Shown here: positions 4,108 through 50,352 of the stretch, in pieces | How the letters are laid out: each line of letters starts with the position of its first letter | Numbering within the stretch: position 1 is the stretch's first letter | Origin: a virus | Direction: 5' to 3' (one strand) | DNA: 64,000 nucleotides | Virus record (IMG/VR): IMGVR_UViG_3300032331_001766 | Location: 49,081-113,080 of that record | Translations under genes and position numbers: made by a program | The notes under the pieces: generated by a model | Told to the model about the DNA's origin: nothing | The model's input: only the letters and a program-made list of their open reading frames with translations | The model's database searches: none

Positions 4108-4162
4108 TTATTACTCAACCACTTATTTGCCTTTTGATGTATACGAGTATAAAATTAAGCAT

Positions 4163-5482
4163 ATGAATATTGAAAAATCACAATGGTCCAGTAATGGAGA
4201 TAACTTACATTTATCTATTCCATTTACTAAGGTTAACCGTGAAAAAAGAACAGTATCAGGCTTTGCTACGCTAGACAATGTTGACCAGACAGGCGATGTT
4301 GTAACAGCAGAGGCAAGCACAAAAGCATTTGAAGGTTTCCGTGGGAACATTCGTGAAATGCACGGATCGCTTGCAGTTGGTAAAATGTTATCATTTAAGC
4401 CAGAGACATACTATGATCCAATTTCAAAGAATTTTTATAATGGAATTTATGTAACAACATATATTTCAAAGGGTGCACAAGATACATGGGAAAAAGTTCT
4501 AGACGGAACTCTTTCAGGATTTTCAATTGGCGGAAAGATTACAGAGTCAGATAACGAAGTCAATAAAGCAAATGGAGAAACTGTTCGTTTTATTAAAGGC
4601 TATAGCCTAATTGAGTTATCAATTGTAGACTCACCAGCAAATGAATTATGTAATATTATTTCATTTGAAAAGGTAAATGGCCAGATGATTGCCAAAGGTA
4701 TTGCAACTGAAGTTGTAACAGAAAACATCTTTTATTGCGAAGAAAGCGACTCAGTTTTTGTATCAACAGAAAAAACATTTGATTCACCAGTTTCTGGTAA
4801 GCCAGCAACATTAATCGGTTGGGTTGAAAGTTCAGATACAAATAAGTCAAAAGAAATAGATAAGATTCTTGCTTCATTTAAGAAGTCAAGATTGTCGTTG
4901 CCTGATACACAAACAATTGCAAAACAGGCAAACGCAGAAGGAGGTAATGAAGTGTCAGAAAATACAGAAAACGTAGTAGTTGAAGAAACTACAGCCGTTG
5001 AAGAGACTCCAGTTGTTGCAGAAGAAGCAGCACCAGTTGTCGAAGAAGCTCCTGCAGAAGAAGCAGCAGCAGACGCTCCTGCCGAAACTCTGGAAAAAGC
5101 AGCCGACGTATCAGAAGTTATGGTTGATGAACCTGATTTTGCAAAAATGTTAGGCGATCTAAAAAACTTTTTCTCAGAAACTCTAGAAAAGTCAAACAGC
5201 ACAAGCTCTGCTGAATTTACAACAGTTAAAGAAACTGTTGAATCATTTAGCAAGTCTGTTGAAGTAAAGCTTTCAGAGCAGGCAGAAGTAAACAGCGCAT
5301 TAGCAAAAGCTATTGAAGAAATCAAGAACACGATTGATGGCGTACAAAAGCGTGTCGATGCAGTAGAATCAGAGACTGCAGTAAAGAAGTCCTCAGATCT
5401 TGGCGGATCTCAGGAAGTAACAATCAAAAAATCCAAATGGAACGGTTCTTTCCTCGGTTCCGTGAACGAAATATTTAACTAA
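4163..5482 (+). CDS. Prohead protease-scaffold fusion
   Basis: RTVSGFAT...VDQTGDVV, IREMH, GTLSGFSIGG and ELSIVDSPAN (HK97-type protease), followed by an acidic Ala/Glu/Pro-rich and coiled-coil C-terminus. ATG 4163 chosen because it follows a -35/-10 promoter. Confidence 0.9.
   Translation: MNIEKSQWSSNGDNLHLSIPFTKVNREKRTVSGFATLDNVDQTGDVVTAEASTKAFEGFRGNIREMHGSLAVGKMLSFKPETYYDPISKNFYNGIYVTTYISKGAQDTWEKVLDGTLSGFSIGGKITESDNEVNKANGETVRFIKGYSLIELSIVDSPANELCNIISFEKVNGQMIAKGIATEVVTENIFYCEESDSVFVSTEKTFDSPVSGKPATLIGWVESSDTNKSKEIDKILASFKKSRLSLPDTQTIAKQANAEGGNEVSENTENVVVEETTAVEETPVVAEEAAPVVEEAPAEEAAADAPAETLEKAADVSEVMVDEPDFAKMLGDLKNFFSETLEKSNSTSSAEFTTVKETVESFSKSVEVKLSEQAEVNSALAKAIEEIKNTIDGVQKRVDAVESETAVKKSSDLGGSQEVTIKKSKWNGSFLGSVNEIFN
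4952..5482 (+). CDS. Putative nested in-frame scaffolding protein (internal GTG start)
   Basis: AAGGAGGT (4938-4945) lies 6 nt before an in-frame GTG at the start of the acidic region. Confidence 0.6.
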   Translation: MSENTENVVVEETTAVEETPVVAEEAAPVVEEAPAEEAAADAPAETLEKAADVSEVMVDEPDFAKMLGDLKNFFSETLEKSNSTSSAEFTTVKETVESFSKSVEVKLSEQAEVNSALAKAIEEIKNTIDGVQKRVDAVESETAVKKSSDLGGSQEVTIKKSKWNGSFLGSVNEIFN

Positions 5483-10678: not shown

Positions 10679-11011
10679 TTGGCAACTACAGTATATGACG
10701 TAGAAGAAATTACGTTACAGAATGGCGCAACAGTTAACCTTAAGCCATTAACAATTAAAGAACTACGCAAGTTTATGGCTGCTATCTCCAAAACTGGAGA
10801 AGCAAAAACAGAAGACGAAACACTAACAATTCTTATTGACGCTTGTGCAGTAGCATTAGAAAAGCAATTACCAGAATTGGTAAAAGATCGTGACGCATTT
10901 GAAGATGTTTTAGACGTTCCTACCATCAACCGCATTCTTGAAGTTTGCGGAGGAATTAAGATGGACGACCCAAACCTTCTAGCGGCAGCGGTTCTGGCTG
11001 GTCAGAACTAG
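10679..11011 (+). CDS. Tail assembly chaperone (gpG-like)
   Basis: Lies between tail tube and TMP; TTG start after GGAGG; ends just past the slippery heptamer. Confidence 0.85.
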   Translation: MATTVYDVEEITLQNGATVNLKPLTIKELRKFMAAISKTGEAKTEDETLTILIDACAVALEKQLPELVKDRDAFEDVLDVPTINRILEVCGGIKMDDPNLLAAAVLAGQN

Positions 11012-11340
11012 ATTTAGCCGCTTTAGAGGGAGAAGTTTTTCTTTTAGGTAATTGGAAAAATTACGCAGAGATAGAAGAAAATCTTTCAATGCCAGAACTT
11101 ATTCAAACATTGAAGTCAATGCAAAAAACGGAATCAGAGAAAAGAAAATTTTTAGCTGGAATCCAAGGTGTTGATATAAATGATGAACAAGAAGAAAAAG
11201 AAGGTCCTACCTTTGAAGATATACAAAGAAGAGCACTTGGCATACATGCAAGCGGAGATGATATAACATCACTTCAAGGAGCATTAGCAGCACAAAGTGG
11301 ATTTGGTATCGGAGCTGGATTAGGATACACCAGGGAGTAA
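10679..11340 (+). CDS. Tail assembly chaperone, long form (gpGT-like) via -1 frameshift at 10969-10975
   Basis: C CCA AAC heptamer; the -1 frame is open from there through the 11089-11340 ORF (PSSGSGSGWSELDLAALEGEVFLLGNWKNY...MPELIQ). Confidence 0.85.
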
Positions 11341-11349
11341 AATAGATAA

Positions 11350-14300
11350 ATGGCTGATGAGCAAATTGTAACCAATATAGTTGCAACCTCAGATTTTTCA
11401 AGTCTCATTGCCGATGTGCAACGGACCACAGCAGCACTATCTAAATTACAGTCACAACTAGCTTTATCAAATACAGCATTAGCGAATCAGGCTGGCCAGA
11501 TACAAAAAGGTTTTGGAGAAACTCTAAGATCAACTGGCCAGTTTACTTCGCATTTTGTTACTGTTGGATCAGAGGTAGATAGATTTGGTAAAAGCCTTGA
11601 TTCTGGAAGATTAAAGTTAAGAGATTATTTTAAAACTTGGCAAGATCACACAAAAAGTTCTGGCGGATTAATTAGAGGTTTAGCAAAAGAACAGGTTGCA
11701 TTACAGCAATCTATAGTTCAATCGCTTGGTAAAACTGCAGATGGAATGCAGAAGTTTAACGTACACGTTAAGACTGGGCTAGATGAAGTAGCAAACAGAA
11801 CTGCATTAGCAAAGAAAGAAATGCAGATATACAACAAGGTTATTCAAGACGGCGGAAATCAAATTATTAACTGGGGTAAAAATACTCAGTGGGCTGGTCG
11901 TCAGTTAACAGTAGGACTCACAGTTCCAATAGCAGCATTTGGTGTGGCTGCATCAAAAGCATTTAGAGATGTTGACCAAGAGCTTGTTAGACTTACAAAG
12001 GTTTACGGTGGGCTTTCTGCAACTAGCGCAGTAGAGTTAGCTAAAGTTAGAAAAGATGTTTCTGCAACAGCTAAAGAATTAGCTGCAGCATATGGAGCGT
12101 CGTACAAAGATACAATTGCATTAGCAGCAGATATTGCAGCAACTGGTAAACAGGGCAACGAGCTGCTTCAGTCTACAAAAGAAGCAACAAGACTTTCTAT
12201 TCTTGGAGAAGTAGATAGACAAGAAGCTATGAAAGCAACTCTTGCAATTCAATCAGCATTTAAAAAGAATACAACAGAGCTTGGCAAATCAATTAACTTT
12301 CTTAACGCAGTTGAAAACCAAACCTCAACAAGCCTTGCAGATTTAGTTGAAGCTATACCAAAAGCTGGACCAGTAGTTAAAGCACTTGGCGGAGACATAG
12401 AAGATTTAGCACTTTATCTTACAGCTATGCGTGAAGGCGGAATTAACGCATCTGAAGGAGCAAATGCTTTAAAGTCAGCATTAGCATCTATCATTAACCC
12501 AACTAAAGTTGCTAAAGAAATGTTTCAAGGATTTGGAATTGATTTAGGTGGGATAGTAACAAAAAATGCTGGAAACTTAACAGGAACTATATTAGAGATT
12601 CAAGCAGCATTAGAAACACTAGATCCTCTTAAGAAATCACAGGCAATTGAGCAGTTGTTTGGTAAGTTCCAGTTTGCAAGAATGAATGCTTTATTTGAGA
12701 ATTTGGGTAAGCAGGGTAGCCAGACTTTACAGGTATTAGATTTAATGAAAGCAAGCTCACAAGATCTTGCAAATGTGGCTGGACGAGAATTAGCACAAAT
12801 TACTGAGTCTGCTTCTGGTAAATATAGAAGAGCATTAGAGTCATTAAAGGCAGACTTAGCTAAAGTAGGAGAGCAGTTCTTAACAATTCAAACATTCTTT
12901 ATTGAATTAGTAGATAAAATAATTAACTTTGTAAACAAATTACCAGAGCCTATTCAAAAAGTTCTTACATTGCTAGCTGGATTCACTGCAGCAGCGGGTC
13001 CACTTATTATGTTAACTGGTGTATTTGCTAACTTCTTTGGATATGTAATTAAGGGAATTGGCCATCTAAGAGCTTTATTTAAGGGCGGCGAAGGATTTAA
13101 ATTATTAACACCTCAAATAATAGCTGCAAATCAAGCTGGAAGTTTAATAGAAAAAACATTTTATAGCGATGCTCAAGCAGCAGCGACATTAGCTAATGCC
13201 CTAAGTAATTTAAATAATGAATTTAATCTTCTATACAATAAAGCAAACAACATTGCGCCAGTAGCACCAGCAATTTCAACAATGGCAAGCACCATGATGT
13301 TGCCAGGCGGAGCAACAGAAAGAGTTGTAAATAAGCAAAGCTCAATGCTAGGCAAGCCTTATTCAAGAGATATGTCTCATATGATTCCTTCAAAAACTGG
13401 ACAAGCAGGAACAATGTTTGGAGTTCTTCCTGGAACTGCTCCAGTAAATAAAAGAATTAGTAATAACCCACAGATCTATGCAGCAGGAGATTTGCCAGAT
13501 GTTCCTGGATTAACTAATGTTAATAAAGTTTCAACAGGTGTTGTAGCAGCAGAAGCTGCTAAATGGCACTCAATGACTGCAGCAATTGCAATGCAATCAG
13601 ATGCAGAACTTACAGCATTGAAACAAGAAGTTGCTGCAACTGGAACAATTACACATGAATTGTCTTCTTCATACCAGGCATTGTTGCCTAAGATGACTGA
13701 AGTTATTCAGAAAGCTGTTAAAGAATCAGAGTTAATTGTTGCTCAGACACAATCTGGTAAAATAACGTTAGATCAAGCAAGAGCAAAAATCACTGCGCTT
13801 AATGCACAAATAGAAACATTATTAGCATCAACAGCACAAGGAGTTGCAACAGCACAGGGAAGATCTATTAATGTTGGAATGGTTCCATTAACAAATCAAC
13901 CAGCTGTATCTCCAACTGGCAAGAGCAACATGAAAGAAATGTTCCACAAGAGTGCTAACGCAAATCTTATTAATAAAATAGCTGGCGTACTTGGAGTAAG
14001 AACTTCAGGCGGAGGATACAGCACTGAAACAACAATGCCAAAGAGATTTGCAGAAGGTGGATTTGTACCAGGAACTGGAAACACAGATACTCATCCAGAT
14101 TCACTACCTGCTGGATCTTATGTTGTAAATAAAAAGTCTTCTGAAAATCCTATGTATAGACCTATACTTAGAGCAATGAAAACTGGAATTAGATTTAGCA
14201 AGGGTGGAGAAGTACCAGTCGTACTAACACCAGGAGAGTTTGTTGCTGACCCACAAACAGCAAGAGAAAACGCACCAGTTCTAAGATCTATTAATGCTGG

Positions 14301-17300
14301 TAATTATGCTGTTGGCGGAACAGTAAGTATGAATAAAGTTAACTATGGAATTTCACCAAACAAGCAAAGAGTAAAGAGCCCAGCAATCATTGAAGATGCT
14401 TTAGCTAAAGTTATTGCATTTAACACAGATAAAAACTATGCTAAAAATAATTATACTGGTGCAGTATTAAATGACTCATGGGCAATATATGATGCAATAA
14501 CTTCTGCAACTGGAAGACCAGCAGATCCAAAAGAAGCAATTTCAATTGCAGAAGCAATGGAAGAAGAAGCAAGATCAGCATCGACCTTTGGCGGAGTGCT
14601 AGATGAAAATGAATATCGTAAAGTCGCTAAAGAACAGATGACTACATGGAAAAAGAAACTTAAAGAACAGTATCCTTCTATAAGACTTACAAGTTCTAAC
14701 AAAAGACAAAATGCAACTGATCCAACTGTCAGAAAATTAATTTATGCAATGATGCTTAAGGATAAAAGATTTAGTAGAGATTACCTAAAAACGCTAGATG
14801 TTTCTGAAGGCGGAAATGCAGTAAGAGCACACAGAGATCAGCTTTCTCAGTCTAAGAATAAGAATAATCCTTATAAGTATTTAAGAGCAGCCGTTGTTAC
14901 TCCAACAAATGTTAATTATGAAAGTAAGCAACTTCAGGATTATTATGGTATGGAAAACTATGAAGATAGAGTTTCTGCTGGACCAGTTCGTGCAGAGCAA
15001 GATGCAAAAAAGCTTCTTAAAGGTGTTGGTTTTAATTCACTTTCTTCATACGAAAAATATTTAAAAGAAAAGAAAGAAAAAAAGGAAGCAGCAAAGAAAC
15101 CTAAAAAGTATAAAGAGTTTTTAGCAGCAAGAACTTTAGGCAAGCCAGCGTTGTTTACACCAGCGTTTGCAGGAGCTATTAGAAGAAATAAGGGCGGAAT
15201 AATACCTGGACTAGCATCATCTGTTATTAATAGACTAACTAATAGATGGCCTGGTAAAAAGCAATTCTATCCACAGGGCTACCAGTACATGCTTGGTAAT
15301 CAAGATCCACTTCATGGTCCACTTCAAATTGGAATGTCACAACAACTTGCAAGACATTCTGGGTATGATCCAAAAGATGTATCACTTCAAAGAGGTGTTG
15401 TATTTAGAGATGATAGGTTTAGTAGATTAAACATTATGCCTCAGTTCCTTACTGGAACAGCAGAAGACCGTGGCAGATATGCAACATCACAATACATGTC
15501 TGGAAACCTAGATATTATGGGACAAATGGAAAGATTGGGTAATCACCCTCTCGGACCAATTGCTGCAATGAAAACTCAACAGAAAAAGTTTAGCGGAAAA
15601 TTATTTAGAGGAATTAAATTAGATAGAACATTTAAGGGTCTGCCAGAAGATTTAATTGAAGCAATTAAAATGGCAAGAGTTACTGGAGATGCTTCACCTT
15701 TAATTGGCAAAGAATTCATTATGCGCCGATCATCTTGGAGCAAGAGCCAAAACATAGCAAGCTACTTTGCGCCAGGGAAAAATGTAGACCCAGAATCATT
15801 GCTTATAGAAGCTGCTGTAAAAAATAGAAATATTTTACCAGCAGGAGACATGTTCCCAGATAAAGTTTTCCAGGCTCCAGGAGGACAAAATTGGGGCGGT
15901 GGAAGATTTAATAATGGATATAGATCAGAACAAGAAGCAATATTTGGTGGCAAGTTTAAGATAGTAGGATTTGATAAAGGCACTCTTCAGGTACAAACAG
16001 TTGTCGATGGAGCAAGAGAAGATGGCGGACCAACACAAGCTGGCAAGTCTTATATAGTTGGAGAAAATGGTCCAGAAATATTTATTCCAGAAACAAATGG
16101 AAATATAGTTCCAAATGCTGGAGTAAGCGGATCTAGAAAAACAGGCGCTATGGTTGCAAACTATGGTGCAAGCATGGCTGGGTATGGAATTGCAAGCAAG
16201 TTAGCTCCAGGAAATATGTTGGCACAAATTGGTGGCGGATTATTAGGCGATGTAGCTGGAAATATGATGTACAACAAGATAATGAATATTGGTCAAGCAG
16301 CTGGATCAGCAGCAAACAAAACTTCATTATTAACAAAAGCTTTCCAATTCTTTATTAAGATGCCTGGACCAGTTAAGTTACTTGCTGCAATTGCTGGAGT
16401 AGGAATGGCAATTCAAGCAGTCAATAAAAAAATTGAAGAGCATAGAAGAATTGTTAATTCAGCATTTGGATTAGAGGCTTCAACTGTAGCAAAGCTTGGA
16501 CTACAGTACACAACCCTTGAAGATAAGATGAAGGATTATCGCAAGGCACAAGATTTAGCAAATGCTTCTGCTGCAGCGTTTAAATATACTACAGATAAAG
16601 TTGGCGGAGCTCAAGGAATAGATATGACTCAAGAAGAGCTAGATGCTCTTAAGAAGTCATCAAAGAAAGATTTTAAAACAGAAATATCAATGTTTAATAC
16701 AGCAGGCGGGAATGAAGTTATTCAAAAAGCTACACAGCTTAAAGCAATGTTTGTATCATCTGGAATGGCAGTACAGGATGCAAATGAATTAATTTATGCA
16801 TTAATATTAAACTCTAATAAGGCAGAAAGCGCATTAACCGCACTTGGAGACAAAGGATTTGGTTCAATTCAAGATAAGGGTACAGCAGCAGCAGCAACAC
16901 TTAAAACATACTACTCCGTTATTGCAAAAGGAAATACTGATCAAATTGGTAAATCCGTTGATTCCGCATTAAATGCATATATAAATCTAGAGACATCTTT
17001 AGTTAATATAAATGATAAGACAAAGCCTATTGTAACTGAATCAGAGGCATACCTAAAGGTTCTTAATAAAATAAAAAATAGCAATGCTGGGAATGCAGAG
17101 TTAGGTGATGAAATTTATCTAGCACTTTCTAAGCAGAATGCTGAGCTTGGTAAGATAATAAATACCACAGACACATTTGCATCTGTAATGGCAAAGGTTA
17201 AATTAAGTACTTCAGGCCTTTCGTTAGACCTTGCAAATATGGGATCATCTGCTGCAACTGCTCTTTCAATAGTAGTATCAAAGCAACAAGATACTCTAGG

Positions 17301-18789
17301 ATCAACAACTGGCCCCTTTGCCAAGCTTGCAAGAGATATTCAAAACACTGGAAAAGCAAGTGCTGATCAAATTGTAAAAACTTCACAGATTTCTGCAGAT
17401 GCATTAAATAAGCAGATAGATTTACATAATAAGAATATAAAAAAGATTAAAGAAGAAGCGGATGCCAGAAAGAAGGCATTAGACGAACAGCTTTCAGATG
17501 AGACAACATTACTTCAAATTAAAAAGAAGCAGATGGAATATGCTGATGCAGTTGCCGCTGGAGATATGTCTAGAGCTGCACAAGCGCAATTAGATATACA
17601 GGCTTTAACAAGAGCTCAAGAAGTTACTGTAGCAAAGCGATCAATTGACGACAAGGCTGAAAAAGATATTAAGGCTCAAGAAGCTGCAATTGATGCGTTA
17701 AATAAAAAGCTTGATGGACTTCAAAAAACAGTAAATGCTGCACAAGCAAATGCATCTGCTGCACAAAAGAAATCTGCTGACCTTCAGTCAATGATGGATG
17801 AACTAGTTGCATTAACTGTAGCTGGAGCGGATGGAGTTGACTCAAAAGAATCTGCACGTAGAGATGCACTTGTAAATAAATTAACAAAGGCTGGATATAA
17901 AGATATTGCTTCTAAGATAACAGGAGCAGTTGGCGGAAGATACGAAGGCAGCACGTTTGTTCCTTCAGGAGATAAGTTAGCAGAATTAAGCAAGGGTTCA
18001 TTTAATGATGCATATAATGCTTCAAAGAAAGCTTTGGCAGTTTACATAACAGATCCAGAAACAATAGCTTTATTAGGTGGATTAGGAAAGGGAGAGACTC
18101 CTGGATTCCAGCCACCAAAGGGAACACCAAAAACTCCTATTATTAATCCTAAAACTCCAGTAAAAGATGTTTCAAAAGAAAAGACAATTCTTGATGCAGC
18201 AAAAGCTGCAGCTGGTGGGAAAAAACAAACAACAATGGTTAGCATTAATGATATTGCTTATGAGATATTTAAGTACGGCAACTCACAGTATTTGATGCCA
18301 AAGGGCACAAGCGGAAGTGAAATTTATGAATACCTATTTGCAAATGGAGCAGTTACTAGAGGTAAACGAGTAACTGACTTAAAGAGAAACTATAGCATAG
18401 GTGGACTAGTATTTGGAGCAGGAACTGCAACATCTGATTCAATACCAGCAATGCTTTCAAATGGAGAATATGTAATTAATGCTGGAGCAGTAAGTGCATA
18501 CGGCAAAGAAGTATTTGATCAATTTAATAGTAGAAAGTTTGCTACTGGAGGAATGGTTAATCCTTCATTTAGTGTTCCTTCTGGAGCAGTCTCACTTGGC
18601 AATAACATGGGTTCACGATATAATGGTGGAGGACAGGTTTACAATTACAGCGCAGGAGGAATTGTCATTAATCCAGCGCAAGGACAAAATGAAAAACAAA
18701 TTGCAGAATACGTAGTTTCAATTATGGATGCAAAAAATGGCTTAAGAGCAGCAAGCACTGGAGATAAAGGACGGTACCTAAGAACATGA
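11350..18789 (+). CDS. Tape measure protein with embedded ADP-ribosyltransferase-like domain
   Basis: 2479 aa, helical, after the chaperones; TP901-type core (QWAGRQLTVGLTVP...EGANALKS); internal LFRG/SSWS/EQE motifs; GG..GAGTATSDSIPAMLSNGEYV near the C-terminus. Confidence 0.93.
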   Translation: MADEQIVTNIVATSDFSSLIADVQRTTAALSKLQSQLALSNTALANQAGQIQKGFGETLRSTGQFTSHFVTVGSEVDRFGKSLDSGRLKLRDYFKTWQDHTKSSGGLIRGLAKEQVALQQSIVQSLGKTADGMQKFNVHVKTGLDEVANRTALAKKEMQIYNKVIQDGGNQIINWGKNTQWAGRQLTVGLTVPIAAFGVAASKAFRDVDQELVRLTKVYGGLSATSAVELAKVRKDVSATAKELAAAYGASYKDTIALAADIAATGKQGNELLQSTKEATRLSILGEVDRQEAMKATLAIQSAFKKNTTELGKSINFLNAVENQTSTSLADLVEAIPKAGPVVKALGGDIEDLALYLTAMREGGINASEGANALKSALASIINPTKVAKEMFQGFGIDLGGIVTKNAGNLTGTILEIQAALETLDPLKKSQAIEQLFGKFQFARMNALFENLGKQGSQTLQVLDLMKASSQDLANVAGRELAQITESASGKYRRALESLKADLAKVGEQFLTIQTFFIELVDKIINFVNKLPEPIQKVLTLLAGFTAAAGPLIMLTGVFANFFGYVIKGIGHLRALFKGGEGFKLLTPQIIAANQAGSLIEKTFYSDAQAAATLANALSNLNNEFNLLYNKANNIAPVAPAISTMASTMMLPGGATERVVNKQSSMLGKPYSRDMSHMIPSKTGQAGTMFGVLPGTAPVNKRISNNPQIYAAGDLPDVPGLTNVNKVSTGVVAAEAAKWHSMTAAIAMQSDAELTALKQEVAATGTITHELSSSYQALLPKMTEVIQKAVKESELIVAQTQSGKITLDQARAKITALNAQIETLLASTAQGVATAQGRSINVGMVPLTNQPAVSPTGKSNMKEMFHKSANANLINKIAGVLGVRTSGGGYSTETTMPKRFAEGGFVPGTGNTDTHPDSLPAGSYVVNKKSSENPMYRPILRAMKTGIRFSKGGEVPVVLTPGEFVADPQTARENAPVLRSINAGNYAVGGTVSMNKVNYGISPNKQRVKSPAIIEDALAKVIAFNTDKNYAKNNYTGAVLNDSWAIYDAITSATGRPADPKEAISIAEAMEEEARSASTFGGVLDENEYRKVAKEQMTTWKKKLKEQYPSIRLTSSNKRQNATDPTVRKLIYAMMLKDKRFSRDYLKTLDVSEGGNAVRAHRDQLSQSKNKNNPYKYLRAAVVTPTNVNYESKQLQDYYGMENYEDRVSAGPVRAEQDAKKLLKGVGFNSLSSYEKYLKEKKEKKEAAKKPKKYKEFLAARTLGKPALFTPAFAGAIRRNKGGIIPGLASSVINRLTNRWPGKKQFYPQGYQYMLGNQDPLHGPLQIGMSQQLARHSGYDPKDVSLQRGVVFRDDRFSRLNIMPQFLTGTAEDRGRYATSQYMSGNLDIMGQMERLGNHPLGPIAAMKTQQKKFSGKLFRGIKLDRTFKGLPEDLIEAIKMARVTGDASPLIGKEFIMRRSSWSKSQNIASYFAPGKNVDPESLLIEAAVKNRNILPAGDMFPDKVFQAPGGQNWGGGRFNNGYRSEQEAIFGGKFKIVGFDKGTLQVQTVVDGAREDGGPTQAGKSYIVGENGPEIFIPETNGNIVPNAGVSGSRKTGAMVANYGASMAGYGIASKLAPGNMLAQIGGGLLGDVAGNMMYNKIMNIGQAAGSAANKTSLLTKAFQFFIKMPGPVKLLAAIAGVGMAIQAVNKKIEEHRRIVNSAFGLEASTVAKLGLQYTTLEDKMKDYRKAQDLANASAAAFKYTTDKVGGAQGIDMTQEELDALKKSSKKDFKTEISMFNTAGGNEVIQKATQLKAMFVSSGMAVQDANELIYALILNSNKAESALTALGDKGFGSIQDKGTAAAATLKTYYSVIAKGNTDQIGKSVDSALNAYINLETSLVNINDKTKPIVTESEAYLKVLNKIKNSNAGNAELGDEIYLALSKQNAELGKIINTTDTFASVMAKVKLSTSGLSLDLANMGSSAATALSIVVSKQQDTLGSTTGPFAKLARDIQNTGKASADQIVKTSQISADALNKQIDLHNKNIKKIKEEADARKKALDEQLSDETTLLQIKKKQMEYADAVAAGDMSRAAQAQLDIQALTRAQEVTVAKRSIDDKAEKDIKAQEAAIDALNKKLDGLQKTVNAAQANASAAQKKSADLQSMMDELVALTVAGADGVDSKESARRDALVNKLTKAGYKDIASKITGAVGGRYEGSTFVPSGDKLAELSKGSFNDAYNASKKALAVYITDPETIALLGGLGKGETPGFQPPKGTPKTPIINPKTPVKDVSKEKTILDAAKAAAGGKKQTTMVSINDIAYEIFKYGNSQYLMPKGTSGSEIYEYLFANGAVTRGKRVTDLKRNYSIGGLVFGAGTATSDSIPAMLSNGEYVINAGAVSAYGKEVFDQFNSRKFATGGMVNPSFSVPSGAVSLGNNMGSRYNGGGQVYNYSAGGIVINPAQGQNEKQIAEYVVSIMDAKNGLRAASTGDKGRYLRT

Positions 18790-19250
18790 TAATGCCAAGA
18801 GGATCCATCCTTCAAATAGAAGCTAAAGATTTATTAGCAAGTCCAGCTGGAACCAGCTTAGTTTGGAATAAGGTTACAGAGCACAATAGATCTGCTTTTG
18901 ATATGAGCCCAATGAGAATTGAGCGCACACAAAGAATGTCCAATGGGTCATTAAGAAAGTTTTATATTGCAGATAAATATAGATTTAACTTAGGCTGGGA
19001 CATGCTTCCTTCATATAGAACTCTAACTGTTGACGGTGCATGGGGAGCAGAAGACCTAAGATCTTTTTATAATAGCGCAGAAGGCCAGGGCACATTTAAG
19101 ATTCGTGTAAACTTAGCAAAGACTGGATCAAACCAAGAGTCAAGTGGATATGAAGAGTACACAGTAAATATAACTGGATGTAACTTTGCAATTGCTAAGC
19201 GTGGGCTACAGCCACATTGGAGTGTATCTCTCTCACTGGAAGAAGTATAA
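18786..19250 (+). CDS. Minor tail protein (distal tail protein-like)
   Basis: Directly after the TMP; RMSNGSLRKF and terminal WSVSLSLEEV. Confidence 0.65.
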   Translation: MIMPRGSILQIEAKDLLASPAGTSLVWNKVTEHNRSAFDMSPMRIERTQRMSNGSLRKFYIADKYRFNLGWDMLPSYRTLTVDGAWGAEDLRSFYNSAEGQGTFKIRVNLAKTGSNQESSGYEEYTVNITGCNFAIAKRGLQPHWSVSLSLEEV

Positions 19251-22200
19251 TGATTACTGCATCCGATGATTTAAAAAATGTATTAAAGCAAAATGTCTCA
19301 GTAAAGACATCTACTCAGACTACCATCGAATATAATATGAACTCATTAATTGATGGTATAACTGTCACATCTACAAATACAGATACAGAGTATACAAACA
19401 AAATTGAAAATTGGCCAAGCGGAAAGCCAAACCCATTTAAAAAACTTTTTCCAATGGATTCAGTTATTAAACCATTTAGACCATTAAATCCTGGAATCAG
19501 ATATTTTATATTTAATACTAATGATCCTTATAAAGCTATAATTGATCCACGTAAAATTTCTTACCCAACAGCAAGTCCTAGAACTTACTATCCAGGAATA
19601 TCAACTTTTTATAAATATTGGGTAAGCCCAGAAGGTTCAAATGCTAATCTTACAGTAACATACAAACAAACTTCATCAACAGGCGGAAACAAAGCAGCAC
19701 TTGCAAATAAGATAATTATAAGATTTGAAAAATATCATCAGCTTCCTTCTGGATACACTGTAACAATTACACCAGTAACTGGATCTCCAATAACAACTTC
19801 TACATATACAGCAGATTCTAATGGACAAGCTGCAATATATTACAACGGAACTACGTGGACAAATATTGCACCATCAGAACCAGTTTCATATGCTTCACCG
19901 CAAGAAATTAAATCAATTACTTTAAATGCAACAAATCCAAGCGGCACAAATATAATTGGAGTTATAGAGTTATCTGCTAGATGGATAAAAGATATATCTT
20001 CAGACATTATAGATTTTTCTGTAAACAAAGAATCTTCTGATTCAGCAGATGGCATTCTTCCAGTTGGAATTGTAACAGCCAATACCTTAAGCATAAATTT
20101 AGTTAAATATGATCAGACAGCTCTTAAGTATGTAAACTATAATAGAGAGTCTACCTCTTTTGATAGCACACTCACCTACCTTGCAAAGAATGCTGAAATT
20201 AAAACATACATAAATGTTCATCATGCAGCAGGCTCAATAACAAACGGATCTGATAAATACGATAAGCTAATCCAAGGAACATTCTATATTGACTCCTCTG
20301 AAATTGGAGAATATGGAGATGTATCTTTAACTGCGTTAGACTCAGCAAAGTATCTAATGGAAACTTATGCCCCAGAGATTATATGCGAAGACTATCCAGT
20401 TACTGCAATATTTAGAAGACTACTAGACTCAGTAGGGTTTTCTAATTACGGATTTAACATTAAAGATAACGAAACATCTGTACCCACAATTCAGTATTGG
20501 TGGAGCGATGGAACGCTAACTGTATGGGAAGCAATACAAGAATTATGTAGAGATATTCAAATGAACGCATTTGTAGATGAGAATAACATTCTTCAATTTT
20601 ATAGCAGAGACTACATATATGATGCAAGTACTAGAACTACCAACTGGGGATTTAATTATGCCACCGACGGCACAACCCTTGCAAACATAGTACAGTTCTC
20701 ACAAAAAGAAGTTTCATCAGCAAACTCAGTAAAGGTTTTATGGCAAAGCCCATTGACATCAAACTACAATGGAACATCTGGCCCACTCTGGGAATCAGCA
20801 GAAGCATTTCTATCTGCAGGTGCTTTAAGAAAAACAATTACAGCAAACTCAAATGCAGCAAGTACCGAGCTTTCTATTGATACAGTTGTGCTCGATAACT
20901 ACTCTTTACAATACAGTTTATATAATTTTCAAGGATACGTTCTTATTGATTCTGAAATAATAGAGTTTGATGCAATTGAATATCAGTATACAGATCTTTC
21001 TAATGCACCTCAAGTAGCGTGGCTAACATCTCAGTCAGATGTAAGCAAATATCGTGCATTATCTAAACCAGGATATGCAGATCCTAAGCTTCCAGAAACT
21101 GCATACTTTAAGCCATCAGGCAGATACAGAGTTAAAACCAGAGGGGCGCTTGGAACAACACCAGCATTTCATGCTGCAACAGCAAATACAAGATTAAGCG
21201 AATGGTCTCAATATACAAACAATGGATCTGGTAAAGTCGGTTCAATTACATCAATACCACTAGACCCGTCAACAGCAAATAAATATAAATCATATTTAAC
21301 AATATCTAATACTAATACTGCAGCAAAAAGTTATAGCTTAGCTTATAGGCCATTTAGCGCAGTTACAATTCCATCTAGCACAAACGTAACTGTAACTGGA
21401 GAAAGCGGAACAGTAACAGTAAAGAGTTACACAGAATCGTATTTTAGTTTTGGAACAACATTATTTATTCAATCTGATATTACTGATACAAAAGGAAAGT
21501 ATCCAAAGCAAGGTGGAGGTCTAGGATTCTTTGTAAATTCTTCTGGATCAGATGGCTACTTTATTTTATTAGAAACATTGTCTTCTGCTGCTTCAACTGG
21601 ACAAAAAACAATTAGAATAGCAAGAATGAAAGCTGGCGTACTTACAACTTTAACTGATAGCCAGAAGACTGATCAAAAAACTTTATCAGCAGTATTTGGA
21701 AATCAGTCACACATTATAGATGTAAAAGTAAAACTATTAGGTAAGTTTATTTATATAGATGCATATATAAATGGATTTAAAATATCCGCAGTAGACCAAG
21801 CAACAGCAGCCAATGCTGGCCTAATAGCTCCAACAACAAACGCTGGACTAATTTGCCACCTACCAAGCACTACTGGAATATATGATTATATATATGGAAT
21901 TGATATATCAAAAGCTAAATATATTTCTGGAACATCAAATATTTATCAAGGACAATTTTCAAACGATTTAGTCGAGACTGCTTTCGGAGACATCATATAT
22001 AATGCAAATACTTCAGAAGACGGCATACCAGTAACTAAGACCTCGATAGATGAATTTGGAACTGTGGTTAGAGAGATAGCTAAGGTTACAACTAAGTTTG
22101 ATAGCCGACCAGCATATCCTCTTAAATGGACAACAGGCATGAATAAGTTTGCAAAGATACTTGGTTCAAAAGTTTCAAACTTTGGCGGGGAAGCATACGT

Positions 22201-22597
22201 GCTAAACAATTCATCATCTACTATTCCTTTGGCAGATGGAGGATTTTCAAACTTCTATGTATACGGAAACACATTAGGTCAATCGGGGCAGCTAGAATAT
22301 TCAACAGATGAGTCTGCAGAATATGCAAACAAAGAGCCTGTCGTATTTGAATCTAAATGGATTCAGTCTTTGTCGGATGCAAAAGCTTTGGCCACATGGA
22401 TTAAGCAAAAAGTTATAAACAGAGGTAAGATTGTAGAGCTTTCAATATTTGGAAATCCAATTATTGGGGTTGGTGATATAGTTACAATTAATTATCCTTA
22501 TAATGGATTTGCGGGCACCGAAAAACTTATTGTTACAAACGTTAATCAGTCATACTTTGAAGGATTGGAGACTACCATTAGCTGCAGAACCCTGTAG
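19250..22597 (+). CDS. Large minor tail protein (baseplate hub-like)
   Basis: TVWEAIQELCRDIQMNAFVDENNILQF and C-terminal IFGNPIIGVGDIVTI motifs; ATG 19250 overlaps the upstream stop (TAATG). Confidence 0.7.
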   Translation: MITASDDLKNVLKQNVSVKTSTQTTIEYNMNSLIDGITVTSTNTDTEYTNKIENWPSGKPNPFKKLFPMDSVIKPFRPLNPGIRYFIFNTNDPYKAIIDPRKISYPTASPRTYYPGISTFYKYWVSPEGSNANLTVTYKQTSSTGGNKAALANKIIIRFEKYHQLPSGYTVTITPVTGSPITTSTYTADSNGQAAIYYNGTTWTNIAPSEPVSYASPQEIKSITLNATNPSGTNIIGVIELSARWIKDISSDIIDFSVNKESSDSADGILPVGIVTANTLSINLVKYDQTALKYVNYNRESTSFDSTLTYLAKNAEIKTYINVHHAAGSITNGSDKYDKLIQGTFYIDSSEIGEYGDVSLTALDSAKYLMETYAPEIICEDYPVTAIFRRLLDSVGFSNYGFNIKDNETSVPTIQYWWSDGTLTVWEAIQELCRDIQMNAFVDENNILQFYSRDYIYDASTRTTNWGFNYATDGTTLANIVQFSQKEVSSANSVKVLWQSPLTSNYNGTSGPLWESAEAFLSAGALRKTITANSNAASTELSIDTVVLDNYSLQYSLYNFQGYVLIDSEIIEFDAIEYQYTDLSNAPQVAWLTSQSDVSKYRALSKPGYADPKLPETAYFKPSGRYRVKTRGALGTTPAFHAATANTRLSEWSQYTNNGSGKVGSITSIPLDPSTANKYKSYLTISNTNTAAKSYSLAYRPFSAVTIPSSTNVTVTGESGTVTVKSYTESYFSFGTTLFIQSDITDTKGKYPKQGGGLGFFVNSSGSDGYFILLETLSSAASTGQKTIRIARMKAGVLTTLTDSQKTDQKTLSAVFGNQSHIIDVKVKLLGKFIYIDAYINGFKISAVDQATAANAGLIAPTTNAGLICHLPSTTGIYDYIYGIDISKAKYISGTSNIYQGQFSNDLVETAFGDIIYNANTSEDGIPVTKTSIDEFGTVVREIAKVTTKFDSRPAYPLKWTTGMNKFAKILGSKVSNFGGEAYVLNNSSSTIPLADGGFSNFYVYGNTLGQSGQLEYSTDESAEYANKEPVVFESKWIQSLSDAKALATWIKQKVINRGKIVELSIFGNPIIGVGDIVTINYPYNGFAGTEKLIVTNVNQSYFEGLETTISCRTL

Positions 22598-47821: not shown

Positions 47822-50352
47822 CAGAAACATTTAAAAGAAGATTATTTATTTTTGATTTAGATGGTGTTTTGGTTGATAGTAAAAAAATACATTTTAATTC
47901 TTTAAATACAGCATTAGAAAAAATTGATCCAAAATATTTAATATCTGAAGAAGATCAGTCAACTATGTTTGAAGGCCTTCCCACTAAAGAAAAGCTAAAA
48001 CTATTAACTAGTTTACGTGGTTTACCAGAAGAGCTTTATGAAAAAATATGGGAAGAAAAACAAAAGCAATCTATAGTATATTTTAAATCTTTAGAAAAAG
48101 ATAAAGAACTTATAGAACTTTTTAAAATAATTAAAGAGTATCATGTTGATATAGCAGTCGCAAGCAACTGCATAAGGGAGACCGTTGAAGCATGTCTTAC
48201 ATCATTAGGATTAATTGATCTAGTTGGCTTATATTTAAGTAATGAAGATGTAGTACAACCAAAACCAAACCCAGAAATTTATACAAAATGTATAAGTCAT
48301 TTTGTGTGTCATCCAAACTATACAACCATATTTGAAGATAGTCGTGTTGGAAAAATTGCAGCTATTGCAAGTGGAGCACGTTTAATAGGCATAGAGAATA
48401 GAAGCTCTATAAATAAAGAAACTATTTTTAAAGCATTAAATGAAGAAAGAAGAAAAATAAATGTATTAATTCCTATGGCTGGCGAAGGCTCTAGATTTAC
48501 AAAAGCTGGTTATAAAGATCCAAAACCAATGATAGATGTAAATGGTAAATCTATGATTAACCTAGTACATGATAATATTAATTTAGATGCTCATTATATT
48601 TTTATTGCAAAAGATGAACACGTAGTTAAATATAATTTAGAAGATCATATTAGTTCATTTTGTAGTAACTATACAATTATAAAACAAGAAGGTAGACTTG
48701 AGGGTGCAGCAAAAACTGCTTTACTTGCTAAAGATCTTATAAGTAATCAAGATCATTTATTGATTGCAAATTCAGATCAGTATATAGATTGGGATAGTAG
48801 TAAAACTATAAATGATTTTATAAGGTCTGGAGTAGATGGTGCTATATTAACTTTTAAAGCAACAGAAGAAAAATGGTCTTATATTAAAGAAAATGATGGC
48901 ATAGTAGAAGAAGTATTTGAAAAAATAGTTGCAAGCGATAATGCAACTTGCGGTGTATATTTTTGGAAATATGGATCTGATTTTATTAAATATGCAGAAA
49001 AAATGATTGAAAAAAATATTAGAACAAATAATGAGTTTTATATATGTCCAGTTTATAATCAAGCTATTGAAGATCAAAAAATTATTTCTTTTTCTGAAGT
49101 AAAAGAAATGCATGGCTTAGGTACACCAGAAGATTTAGATTCTTATTTAAAATATTTAGATATAAGAACTGATATTAGAAATAAAAATTACACAGAAAAA
49201 ATATTTGAAATATCTGAAGATGAATTTTTTGTTAAATATAAAAATCCAGAGTATGAGATATATGATAGAGAATTATCAAATAATCCTGGATATAAGTATT
49301 ATGACTATGATGCTGAAATGGTTAAACTTCCAGATGCCACACTACTTGAAAAATATCAAGAGCGCACACGTAGATGGGTTTTAAATCCAATAGTGACTAA
49401 AATTCATAATTCTAATGAGGTTTCTTATTTAGAAAGATCAGTATATCTTGTGCCATATCATACAAGATTTTTTCATGTTTATTTAGAAATTCTTCCAAAG
49501 ATTTTTATTTTAAAAGAAAAAGATCCTAACTTTAAACTTATAATGTTTCATGATGAAGAATTAAATGAAGATAAAATTTTTCCAAGTTTATTAGGCAATT
49601 ATAATAAAAAAAATGGAAGAGAATCCGACGGTAGAGCTTTAAAGTTTTGGTTAGATAAACTAAATATAGACTATGAATGTATAAATTTAGAAACCTTAAA
49701 GGATTATAATTTAAAGTTTAAATATTCATATGTATTTTATGAAGCTATTAGAAATCAAAATTTAATGGATATTGCAAAAAAATATGATGAAAAATTTTTT
49801 AATGGTCCAATAGTATATAAAGATTTAAAAAAATATCATCCACATGAGATATTACAAAGAGGAGATTCTAGCGTAGATGTAGGTACAAATAGATATTTAA
49901 AAAAAGCAATAAATGATTTTATTAATATAAATAATTTAGATGTAAAAAATGAAAATAAAAAAATATATATATCTAGAAAAAATTATGTTAGATCTCACAA
50001 AAATGAAAAAGATATAGAAAACTACTTTATTTCAATTGGATACGAATCCGTATGCTTGGAAGACTTTGATCCAATAGAGCAAATACAAATATTTAGAAAG
50101 TCATCAGATATAGTTTGTTATTTAGGATCATCTATAATAAATGCATATTTTATAAATCATGAAGCTAAACTAACCATATTGGCATTAGATTCAGATAGCG
50201 ACGCAGAGTTTAATAAAAATATGCTTGGATACTATAGTATGCAAATTCAAGATCAAAAAATCAATAAAAAATTTATAAACATACCTCAATTTTTTAATGA
50301 TGATGTAAGTCATTTCTTTAATAAAGAATTGGAGAAAAATAATGGAGTTTGA
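47818..50352 (+). CDS. Fusion protein: HAD phosphatase + sugar-phosphate nucleotidyltransferase + GT61-like glycosyltransferase
   Basis: FDLDGVL, KPNPEIY and FEDS (HAD); LIPMAGEGSRF..PKP, ANSDQ, NEFYICPVYN and GLGTPEDL (NTP transferase); FFHVYLEILPK, KIYISRK, EQIQIF and GSSIINAYF (GT61/DUF563-like). Confidence 0.8.
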   Translation: MTETFKRRLFIFDLDGVLVDSKKIHFNSLNTALEKIDPKYLISEEDQSTMFEGLPTKEKLKLLTSLRGLPEELYEKIWEEKQKQSIVYFKSLEKDKELIELFKIIKEYHVDIAVASNCIRETVEACLTSLGLIDLVGLYLSNEDVVQPKPNPEIYTKCISHFVCHPNYTTIFEDSRVGKIAAIASGARLIGIENRSSINKETIFKALNEERRKINVLIPMAGEGSRFTKAGYKDPKPMIDVNGKSMINLVHDNINLDAHYIFIAKDEHVVKYNLEDHISSFCSNYTIIKQEGRLEGAAKTALLAKDLISNQDHLLIANSDQYIDWDSSKTINDFIRSGVDGAILTFKATEEKWSYIKENDGIVEEVFEKIVASDNATCGVYFWKYGSDFIKYAEKMIEKNIRTNNEFYICPVYNQAIEDQKIISFSEVKEMHGLGTPEDLDSYLKYLDIRTDIRNKNYTEKIFEISEDEFFVKYKNPEYEIYDRELSNNPGYKYYDYDAEMVKLPDATLLEKYQERTRRWVLNPIVTKIHNSNEVSYLERSVYLVPYHTRFFHVYLEILPKIFILKEKDPNFKLIMFHDEELNEDKIFPSLLGNYNKKNGRESDGRALKFWLDKLNIDYECINLETLKDYNLKFKYSYVFYEAIRNQNLMDIAKKYDEKFFNGPIVYKDLKKYHPHEILQRGDSSVDVGTNRYLKKAINDFININNLDVKNENKKIYISRKNYVRSHKNEKDIENYFISIGYESVCLEDFDPIEQIQIFRKSSDIVCYLGSSIINAYFINHEAKLTILALDSDSDAEFNKNMLGYYSMQIQDQKINKKFINIPQFFNDDVSHFFNKELEKNNGV

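Follow-up and report, generated by a model that had tools for sequence, protein, structure and literature searches.

Tape measure proteins (TMPs) with embedded enzymes are already known, and so are the cleavage of TMPs in the phages T5 and lambda and virion proteins whose toxin domains are exchangeable. In T5 the TMP pb2 is cut after R1127, which separates an enzymatically active C-terminal piece; this piece remains at the tail tip and is the first to be expelled (Linares et al. 2023, PMC10038345). The lambda TMP gpH matures to gpH* and gpHC (Hendrix and Casjens 1974, as reviewed in PMC12617516), ~14 kDa being removed from its Gly-rich C-terminal region at an unmapped site and by an unknown catalyst; according to the same structural paper from 2025 those of T5 and lambda are the only TMPs known to be cut (PMC12617516). 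Here we analysed a window of 64,000 nt (positions 49,081 to 113,080 of the IMG/VR record IMGVR_UViG_3300032331_001766, an uncultured phage whose 113,080-bp record is rated complete), in which one open reading frame (ORF) of 7,440 nt encodes a TMP of 2,479 amino acids, termed P0001 in this analysis. This TMP carries a recurring short glycine motif, and it is exactly at this motif that whole cassettes are exchanged, gained, lost and moved to other sites among related phages. A literature search returned no paper linking one joint motif to both cassette boundaries and the T5 cut, and none describing an ADP-ribosyltransferase (ART) inside a TMP.

Cassettes are exchanged at a glycine motif

The preliminary description of the window, made from its letters, had named nine related motifs, and all nine were found at their positions within the single ORF: FAEGG (aa 900, nt 14047), FSKGG (aa 949, nt 14194) and YAVGG (aa 986, nt 14305) in the N-terminal half, RNKGG (aa 1279, nt 15184) and REDGG (aa 1556, nt 16015) in the middle, and YSIGG (aa 2348, nt 18391), FATGG (aa 2397, nt 18538), YNGGG (aa 2424, nt 18619) and YSAGG (aa 2433, nt 18646) at the C-terminal end. 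They are referred to as joints 1 to 9 in this order. The four modules quoted as following them are present in the TMP as well, and the motif copies are concentrated in three Gly-rich stretches (aa 880-1000, 1279-1600 and 2340-2479). As Gly-rich linkers contain GG, the series might be a matter of chance or composition, with nine copies picked out of 33; the nine are indeed a selection made in the preliminary description, because the TMP holds 33 GG dipeptides, and with 20 expected this enrichment is moderate. The longer pattern [FYR]xxGG, however, occurs 11 times compared to 1.9 ± 1.3 expected from composition-preserving shuffles, none of 2000 shuffles reaching 11, and [FYRKLH][NAS]xGG occurs 10 times with 1.3 expected from shuffling. 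Moreover, the sequence logo described below is position-specific over eight residues and conserved in more than 100 homologues, and homology breakpoints are about ten-fold enriched at the motif, all of which makes chance a very improbable explanation.

Motif copies were aligned site by site in a set of ~200 homologous TMPs, which comprised 145 proteins from protein searches and 81 IMG/VR loci. The core across this set is [KR]-[FLYMR]-[NA]-x-G-G-x-[VI], with a basic residue at position -4 and V or I at +3, the latter at every one of the five sites covered by the logo. At joint 4 the logo shows R or Y at -3, N at -2, GG, and I or V at +3, and at joint 5 Arg occupies -3 in 98% of the homologues. 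The nine copies are heterogeneous in what they open. Joints 1 and 6 are followed by a hook of ~45 residues (..G.G...D..P..L..GE[FY]V.. plus helices; modules M1 and M6), joint 2 by a shortened hook (M2) and joint 5 by a GExGPE module (M5), and joints 3, 4, 7, 8 and 9 consist of the bare core. Used as a query, M6 also matches the position of joint 1 (~aa 897-940) in many homologues. Among cultured phages M6 matches 554 records at E ≤ 1e-3, mostly actinophages (Gordonia, Mycobacterium and Arthrobacter phages among them), and nearly all of the 40 matches listed are annotated as TMP; the TMP of phage Douge is matched twice (E 2e-15) and that of JBD30 once, at 1019-1087. In a tblastn search M5 matched TMPs of Serratia, Vibrio and Pseudoalteromonas phages. 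Some copies are spaced by nine residues, such as YNGGG..YSAGG (window 18610-18666) and, in relatives, FNRGG..YVRGG (e.g. P0081, ~aa 1197-1212).

The preliminary description had regarded the motifs as possible recombination joints between exchangeable cassettes and had suggested the collection of homologous TMPs as a check. In the collected homologues the variable domains are bounded by the motif at three sites, and these boundaries, together with breakpoint counts and near-identical protein pairs, support the suggestion. At site 1, the position of insert 1, at least 12 cassette types, similar in length but unrelated by BLAST, were distinguished among 126 homologues; this count is threshold-dependent, considers the core only and requires ≥60% mutual coverage, a stricter rule on which it depends because loose single linkage had lumped all cassettes together. 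On the left, cross-type homology has its median end just after the GG motif or its xxGG..NYG extension in most of the 12 types; on the right, 10 of the 12 types have their median restart at [RKFYL]NxGG or just before it. Two pairs of proteins resolve the switch to single residues: P0081 and P0085 are 99.6% identical in the next domain and carry unrelated cassettes, the change lying exactly at GG on both sides, and P0017 and P0014 (98.8% identity in the next domain) likewise carry unrelated cassettes, the left-hand change following the GG..YG element and the right-hand one lying at GG. The flanks of the swapped cassettes are 95-100% identical in both pairs. Compared with P0001 itself, P0009 shows ~90% identity over aa 1-900, 15-38% over aa 921-1280 and ~60-90% over aa 1600-2479.

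Three of the motifs had been placed at the edges of two non-helical inserts. The edges hold, as homology breaks at ~1001 and resumes at 1272-1290, and at site 2 several alignments with relatives that lack the ART restart exactly at REDGG, residue 1556; the term non-helical, in contrast, is doubtful for insert 1, which is mostly helical in a low-confidence model. Site 3 lies between residues 2396 and 2397, where the TMPs of relatives are extended by 240-1,356 residues, with CHAP, LysM or OmpA-like domains among them. These inserts mostly open shortly after M6 with [RK]-[FL]-A-x-GG (with variants in some), and a further [FY]AxGG precedes the conserved C-terminal tail. Several relatives (P0021, P0057, P0061, P0094, P0101 and others) are 3,300-3,800 residues long with CHAP (PF05257) and LysM (PF01476) domains, and an OmpA-like domain (PF00691) is present in P0020 and P0082; the CHAP/LysM relatives inspected have a large insert at the C-terminal joint.

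Breakpoints were counted in proteins and in DNA. Protein breakpoints, defined as those ends of high-scoring segment pairs (≥85% identity under PAM30 scoring) that fall inside each of the two proteins, form 386 clusters, 26% of which lie within 3 aa of a strict motif compared to 2.5% for random positions (median distance 11 vs 114 residues). For DNA we used independently fetched IMG/VR loci and determined the distance from the ends of stretches with ≥90% identity to the first Gly codon of the motif. Of the 42 breakpoint clusters obtained here, 29% are no more than 9 nt away compared to 2.1% at random (median 37 vs 476 nt), and many breakpoints fall inside the motif codons. The clusters are phylogenetically non-independent, and part of the coincidence is expected for any conserved linker because breakpoints stop at the last conserved residues; despite this non-independence and the bias of alignment ends, the effect size together with the single-residue examples is clear. 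At least 49 changes of cassette type are needed on a tree of the N-terminal part and at least 53 on one of the next domain (ART), where 12 types require a minimum of 11 changes and shuffled labels give ~70. The family comprises at least 594 IMG/VR loci. Given the swapping of motif-fenced cassettes, its TMP is a ruler with a train of exchangeable cargo.

The end of ≥90% DNA identity between related loci in or beside the motif codons, the identity of the flanks up to GG and the incongruence of the cassette type with both flanks are also in line with a motif that is mainly a recombination device for in-frame exchange between co-infecting phages and has little role in the finished protein. We consider this improbable. 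No meaningful DNA repeats are shared among the motif copies within the TMP gene, and it is thus the peptide that is conserved; the fixed DNA encoding a core of 5-8 residues would be too short for homologous recombination; and the motif is kept in TMPs without a cassette array, namely those of T5, lambda, JBD30 and Douge. Recent internal duplication as the source of the motif copies was rejected as well, since the gene has no intragenic DNA repeats of note at the motifs.

A predicted ADP-ribosyltransferase and an orphan cassette

Insert 2 is predicted to be an ART of the R-S-E superfamily, an assignment made from fold and catalytic triad. The elements R, S-x-S and E-x-E are present in this order, and all 40 sequences of an alignment have R1420-G1421, S1462, S1464, E1527 and E1529 in common. 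A PDB sequence search with the region returned nothing at E ≤ 10, so that a fold search was needed. With the AlphaFold model of the region (pLDDT 76), Foldseek gave 33 PDB matches at E ≤ 0.001 (best E 6e-6), all ARTs among the matches listed, and the top matches were the R-S-E ARTs Vis, C3, Certhrax, HopU1 and Tre1. VIA-align yielded Z ~10 over 143-153 residues, covering model residues 90-273 (Certhrax, 4fk7: Z 10.1, rmsd 3.4 Å, 143 residues). No ART family in Pfam, such as PF03496, matched at E ≤ 10. The NAD-dependent transferase activity of the domain is putative.

In an exhaustive profile-free search the ART domain was found only inside TMPs (43 clusters), and no standalone homologue was found. 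A first locus scan with the ART alone gave one locus. The domain is present in only 11 of the 81 IMG/VR loci chosen by N-terminal similarity, demonstrating that the ART is an optional cassette, and it can move between sites, as in P0059 it is located near the C-terminus (~aa 1840-2110), between FAKGG and YANGG, and not mid-protein. P0044 and P0124 have strict motifs at positions similar to those in P0059. Those of the loci chosen by their N-terminus (L002-L081) that lack the ART show ~200-800 unrelated residues between query positions ~950-1150 and ~1515-1700.

Insert 1 is common only to P0002-P0007 (78-94%) and P0119 (34%). A search among long proteins returned only seven near relatives, a standalone homologue was not found, and neither Pfam nor Atlas gave a match, a weak hit to the Pfam family DUF7263 (E 0.14) being disregarded. 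Insert 1 is probably helical: the AlphaFold model of aa 893-1300 is poor (pLDDT 49.6) and predicts mostly helix for the insert, and Foldseek found no fold match for this model (best E 1.0). The view that the TMP carries exchangeable effectors, put forward in the preliminary description, thus agrees with the ART-fold cassette and with the CHAP, LysM and OmpA cassettes of relatives, but it does not extend to insert 1, for which no relatives beyond these near ones and no fold were detectable.

Maturation cuts or structural joints

The T5 cut is located inside the motif. At this position the T5 gene reads ..VPR/AEGG.. (the slash marks the cut) and then ..YQMGEHGTEVVTP (..MGEHGTEVVTP), i.e. motif plus GExGxE module. 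The same succession of a large or basic residue, two residues, GG and GExGxE is found at aa 1556-1580 of P0001 (REDGG..GENGPE), and T5 residues 1127-1151 are identical to this segment at 11 of 25 positions in an ungapped alignment. A hidden Markov model (HMM) of the family module matches pb2 1127-1164 with R1127 aligned to R1556, scoring 12.2 bits compared to 5.4 bits for the best of 1000 shuffles. With no more than two [FYR]xxGG copies among the 1,219 residues of pb2, a chance coincidence of motif and cut is unlikely. The maturation of pb2 into pb2* and pb2C was reportedly also the subject of Boulanger et al. 2008. The T5 cut separates an enzyme-bearing piece from the ruler within a motif that aligns with joint 5. 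The two proteins differ in that pb2 has one joint and one small C-terminal piece, whereas P0001 has nine motifs and at least three cassette sites, two of them mid-protein; moreover, the order of hydrophobic stretch and module is reversed, and cleavage, mapped in T5, is inferred for P0001. Upstream of the T5 cut (L082, pb2 aa 1085-1127) a degenerate hook-like stretch (..ASSGELSYL..) was observed. The order of hook, ~20 residues and joint is the same in pb2 and at aa 2348-2401 of P0001.

In lambda gpH (L083) FATGG (733), a hook (..EPAGIVHRGEFVF..) and YATGG (778) lie in the region of the cut, and the family hook HMM matches gpH 753-789 with 11.6 bits compared to 7.4 bits for shuffles. For a cut at 733/734 we computed a piece of 12.5-12.7 kDa, the reported one being ~14 kDa. 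As site and protease are unknown in lambda, this phage cannot confirm the motif as a cut site; instead, the motif predicts the site in lambda. In contrast to P0001, gpH has no inserted cargo.

We propose that the motif is a conserved inter-module joint of siphophage TMPs which fences cassettes and of which at least some copies are maturation cut sites, a reading that we judge to have an even chance of being correct. By analogy with T5 and lambda, cleavage at the joints of P0001 is plausible, and at least joint 5 (R/EDGG, 1556) and joint 7 (before or within FATGG, 2397) may be maturation cuts, a proposition that could go either way. Besides the non-independence of the breakpoints and their expected coincidence with conserved linkers, several points weigh against the proposal. 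The analogy consists of one mapped site, that of T5, and short, weak profile matches (~12 bits). Tandem copies nine residues apart (2424/2433, and FNRGGMVPGYVRGGG-type runs in relatives) favour a structural role for at least those; because of their spacing these copies cannot all be productive cut sites, and they probably form a small structural repeat rather than separate cut sites. The invariable V or I at position +3 is what a strand would show. Moreover, three or six folded domains of 25-30 kDa would have to fit into the tail lumen. Finally, the 5002-aa TMP gp96 of Thermus phage P23-45 is described as a fusion to the virion RNA polymerase, and the text of that paper mentions no proteolysis (Chaban et al. 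2024, PMC10770324).

The tandem spacing, which resembles repeat structure, the invariable V or I at +3 and the enzyme fused to the P23-45 TMP are all compatible with joints that are structural only. GG-x-[VI] would then start a turn and a strand, opening hooks or stapling the TMP trimer between the coiled coil and looped-out domains, the cargo would stay covalently attached, as apparently in P23-45 gp96, and the cassette boundaries would be the edge of the scaffold. In agreement with this, AlphaFold predicts short beta strands and helices in M1 and M2 (at M2 a short beta hairpin plus helices, pLDDT 55-74), and the homologous segment of the JBD30 TMP is predicted to form a hook from two helices plus a beta hairpin (PMC11445458). 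Other findings speak against a purely structural role: the core motif also stands without a hook directly before the CHAP and ART cassettes, the T5 cut lies inside the motif, and the strong retention of basic or large residues at -4/-3, including the Arg of joint 5, fits a recognition site better than a turn. We regard joints that are structural only as a serious possibility, though not the more probable one. The Arg-C site R1066 given in the JBD30 paper (PMC11445458) is a PeptideCutter prediction only and was not used as evidence.

In what we regard as the most likely mechanism, the TMP consists of a ruler (aa 1-896), a cargo region (aa 897-1556), a membrane-type stretch (aa 1595-1700), a second helical region, and a C-terminal hook with a docking piece. 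The joints are the conserved boundaries at which in-frame recombinants between related phages survive. After cutting, the pieces would be held non-covalently in the tail lumen and tip, and upon opening of the tail tip the C-terminal piece would exit first, followed by ruler and cargo, so that enzyme modules would reach the envelope or cytoplasm of the host before the DNA does. Some copies may be left uncut, those nine residues apart being probably structural. The ART might modify a host protein, by analogy with T4 Alt and P23-45; T4 Alt is the phage precedent for an ART with a host protein as its target. A far-reaching version, which we put forward as tentative and rather doubtful, is that the joint is a general self-processing code of siphophage TMPs, shared by T5, lambda, actinophages and the P0001 family, that giant TMPs are true polyproteins cut at most joints, that each infection injects exchangeable free enzymes ahead of the DNA, and that lambda gpH is cut near F733/A734. 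The head maturation protease encoded in the window (4127-5482) was set aside as the cutter, as nothing ties its specificity to the motif. Tails assemble separately from heads.

Genomic setting and comparison with known delivery systems

The assignment of P0001 as TMP is based on a match of aa 239-438 to PF10145 (PhageMin_Tail, TP901-type TMP; E 2.9e-28, 99.5 bits with a curated cut-off of 33.2) and on matches to PHROG TMP families (best E 4.7e-124). Its gene is the longest of the tail module and lies between the head/portal and the distal tail genes, with portal, head protease, capsid-like and adaptor genes upstream and a 1,126-residue minor tail protein and fibre genes downstream; the distal tail and hub proteins are encoded at 18786-22597. 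A Pfam search with five sub-regions of the TMP added nothing to PF10145, and megablast of the gene against 50,697 phage records gave no match, i.e. there is no close cultured phage at the DNA level and the search yielded no cultured member of the family. Two small ORFs (110 and 83 aa; window 10679-11340) lie immediately 5' of the gene at the usual place of frameshifted tail assembly chaperones and were not identified as such. The features of the gene are listed in Table 1.

Table 1. Features of the TMP gene; positions refer to the window.
Feature	Position	Strand	Observation
TMP gene, 2479 aa	11350..18789	+	single ORF; PF10145; PHROG TMP
Conserved N-terminal ruler, aa 1-896	11350..14037	+	55-90% identity across homologues; homology breaks all lie downstream of ~aa 900
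Joint 1, KRFAEGG (aa 898-904), and hook module M1	14038..14142	+	paralogous to M6; DNA breakpoints of related loci inside the motif
Joint 2, IRFSKGG, and short hook M2 (..VVLTPGEFV..)	14185..14274	+	many homologues break at query aa 946-959
Joint 3 (YAVGG .. NYG), left fence of cassette site 1	14296..14352	+	median cross-type homology end at aa 1001, just after the element, and at its counterpart in 10 of 12 cassette types
Insert 1, orphan variable cassette, aa 1002-1276	14353..15177	+	narrow distribution; at least 12 types at the site
Joint 4, IRRNKGGIIP, right fence of cassette site 1	15178..15207	+	median homology restart at aa 1278
Insert 2, predicted ART cassette, aa 1287-1552; catalytic core ~1369-1552 (window 15454-16005)	15208..16005	+	fold and invariant residues
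Joint 5, AREDGG, and GExGPE module M5	16006..16131	+	alignments restart at aa 1556; T5 pb2 HMM match
Gly-rich hydrophobic stretch, aa 1595-1700	16132..16449	+	read from sequence; variable in homologues
Joint 6, KRNYSIGG, and hook module M6 (..TSDSIPAMLSNGEYV..)	18379..18537	+	kept in nearly all homologues
Joint 7, SRKFATGGMV, C-terminal cassette site	18529..18558	+	homologues carry inserts of 240-1356 aa exactly there
C-terminal piece of 8.6 kDa (aa 2397-2479); contains joints 8 and 9 (YNGGG, YSAGG) and a terminal helix	18538..18786	+	conserved unit behind the inserts of homologues

The stretch of aa 1595-1700, immediately behind the GExGPE module, is rich in Gly, Ala and Met and is similar to the stretch with which other TMPs insert into membranes; by comparison with the hydrophobic stretch of T5 pb2 (PMC10038345) it is likely to insert into a membrane. 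The C-terminal piece, in turn, may be the positional analogue of T5 pb2C (92 aa) and lambda gpHC, both of which are docked to the hub (PMC10038345, PMC12617516).

The preliminary description had seen in this arrangement a phage analogue of polymorphic toxin delivery. Measured against the features of polymorphic toxin systems (Zhang et al. 2012, PMC3482391) the analogy is loose, as the variable cassettes of P0001 are internal and its extreme C-terminus, where a toxin would be expected, is conserved. No immunity gene and no standalone cassette pool were found, immunity genes not having been specifically searched for, and what follows downstream of the TMP is a small, unremarkable ORF of the tail module.

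Mycobacteriophage TMPs with embedded peptidoglycan-hydrolase motifs have been described by Piuri and Hatfull 2006, as cited in PMC9024508. They share with P0001 the presence of enzyme modules inside a TMP, the Douge TMP has two hooks ~400 residues apart, and actinophage TMPs are the most frequent matches to M6. In contrast to P0001, they are described as having single small wall-hydrolase motifs and not motif-fenced arrays with an enzyme of cytoplasmic type such as an ART. Pedulla et al. 2003 reportedly also dealt with embedded hydrolase motifs in mycobacteriophage TMPs. The P23-45 protein gp96 resembles P0001 as a TMP that serves as vehicle for an enzyme acting inside the host. It differs by being a single N-terminal fusion for which cassette exchange, a joint motif or processing are not described. 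With ARTs of the C3/Vis/Certhrax type the predicted ART of insert 2 shares the R-S-E fold (Z ~10) and the same R, S-x-S and E-x-E; unlike these, the TMP ART family lacks sequence matches in Pfam or the PDB and is confined to TMPs.

Polymorphic toxins fused to MuF have reportedly been described by Jamet et al. 2017. In the polyvalent proteins known from phages (Iyer et al. 2017, as cited in PMC7824862), one large virion protein combines several unrelated enzymatic domains. The ART is the sole enzymatic domain identified in P0001, relatives adding CHAP, LysM or OmpA. In these proteins and in the MuF-VIP2 fusions (PMC7302621), as in P0001, a virion protein bears enzyme or toxin domains that can be interchanged, ARTs among them; such domains reach the host together with the DNA, as those of P0001 would. 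The polyvalent and MuF proteins are packaged in the head and vary in their C-terminal domains, whereas in P0001 the carrier is the TMP of the tail and the variable parts are internal, each fenced by one short motif. This one motif marks the T5 cut, sits in the region of the lambda cut and fences swappable modules in a large TMP family of uncultured phages. If the joints are not cut, it would still be a practical marker of TMP domain boundaries and of the places where cargo is exchanged; if they are, the tail lumen would be a second, modular route by which ready-made proteins reach bacteria, beside the head-packaged T4 Alt and MuF fusions.

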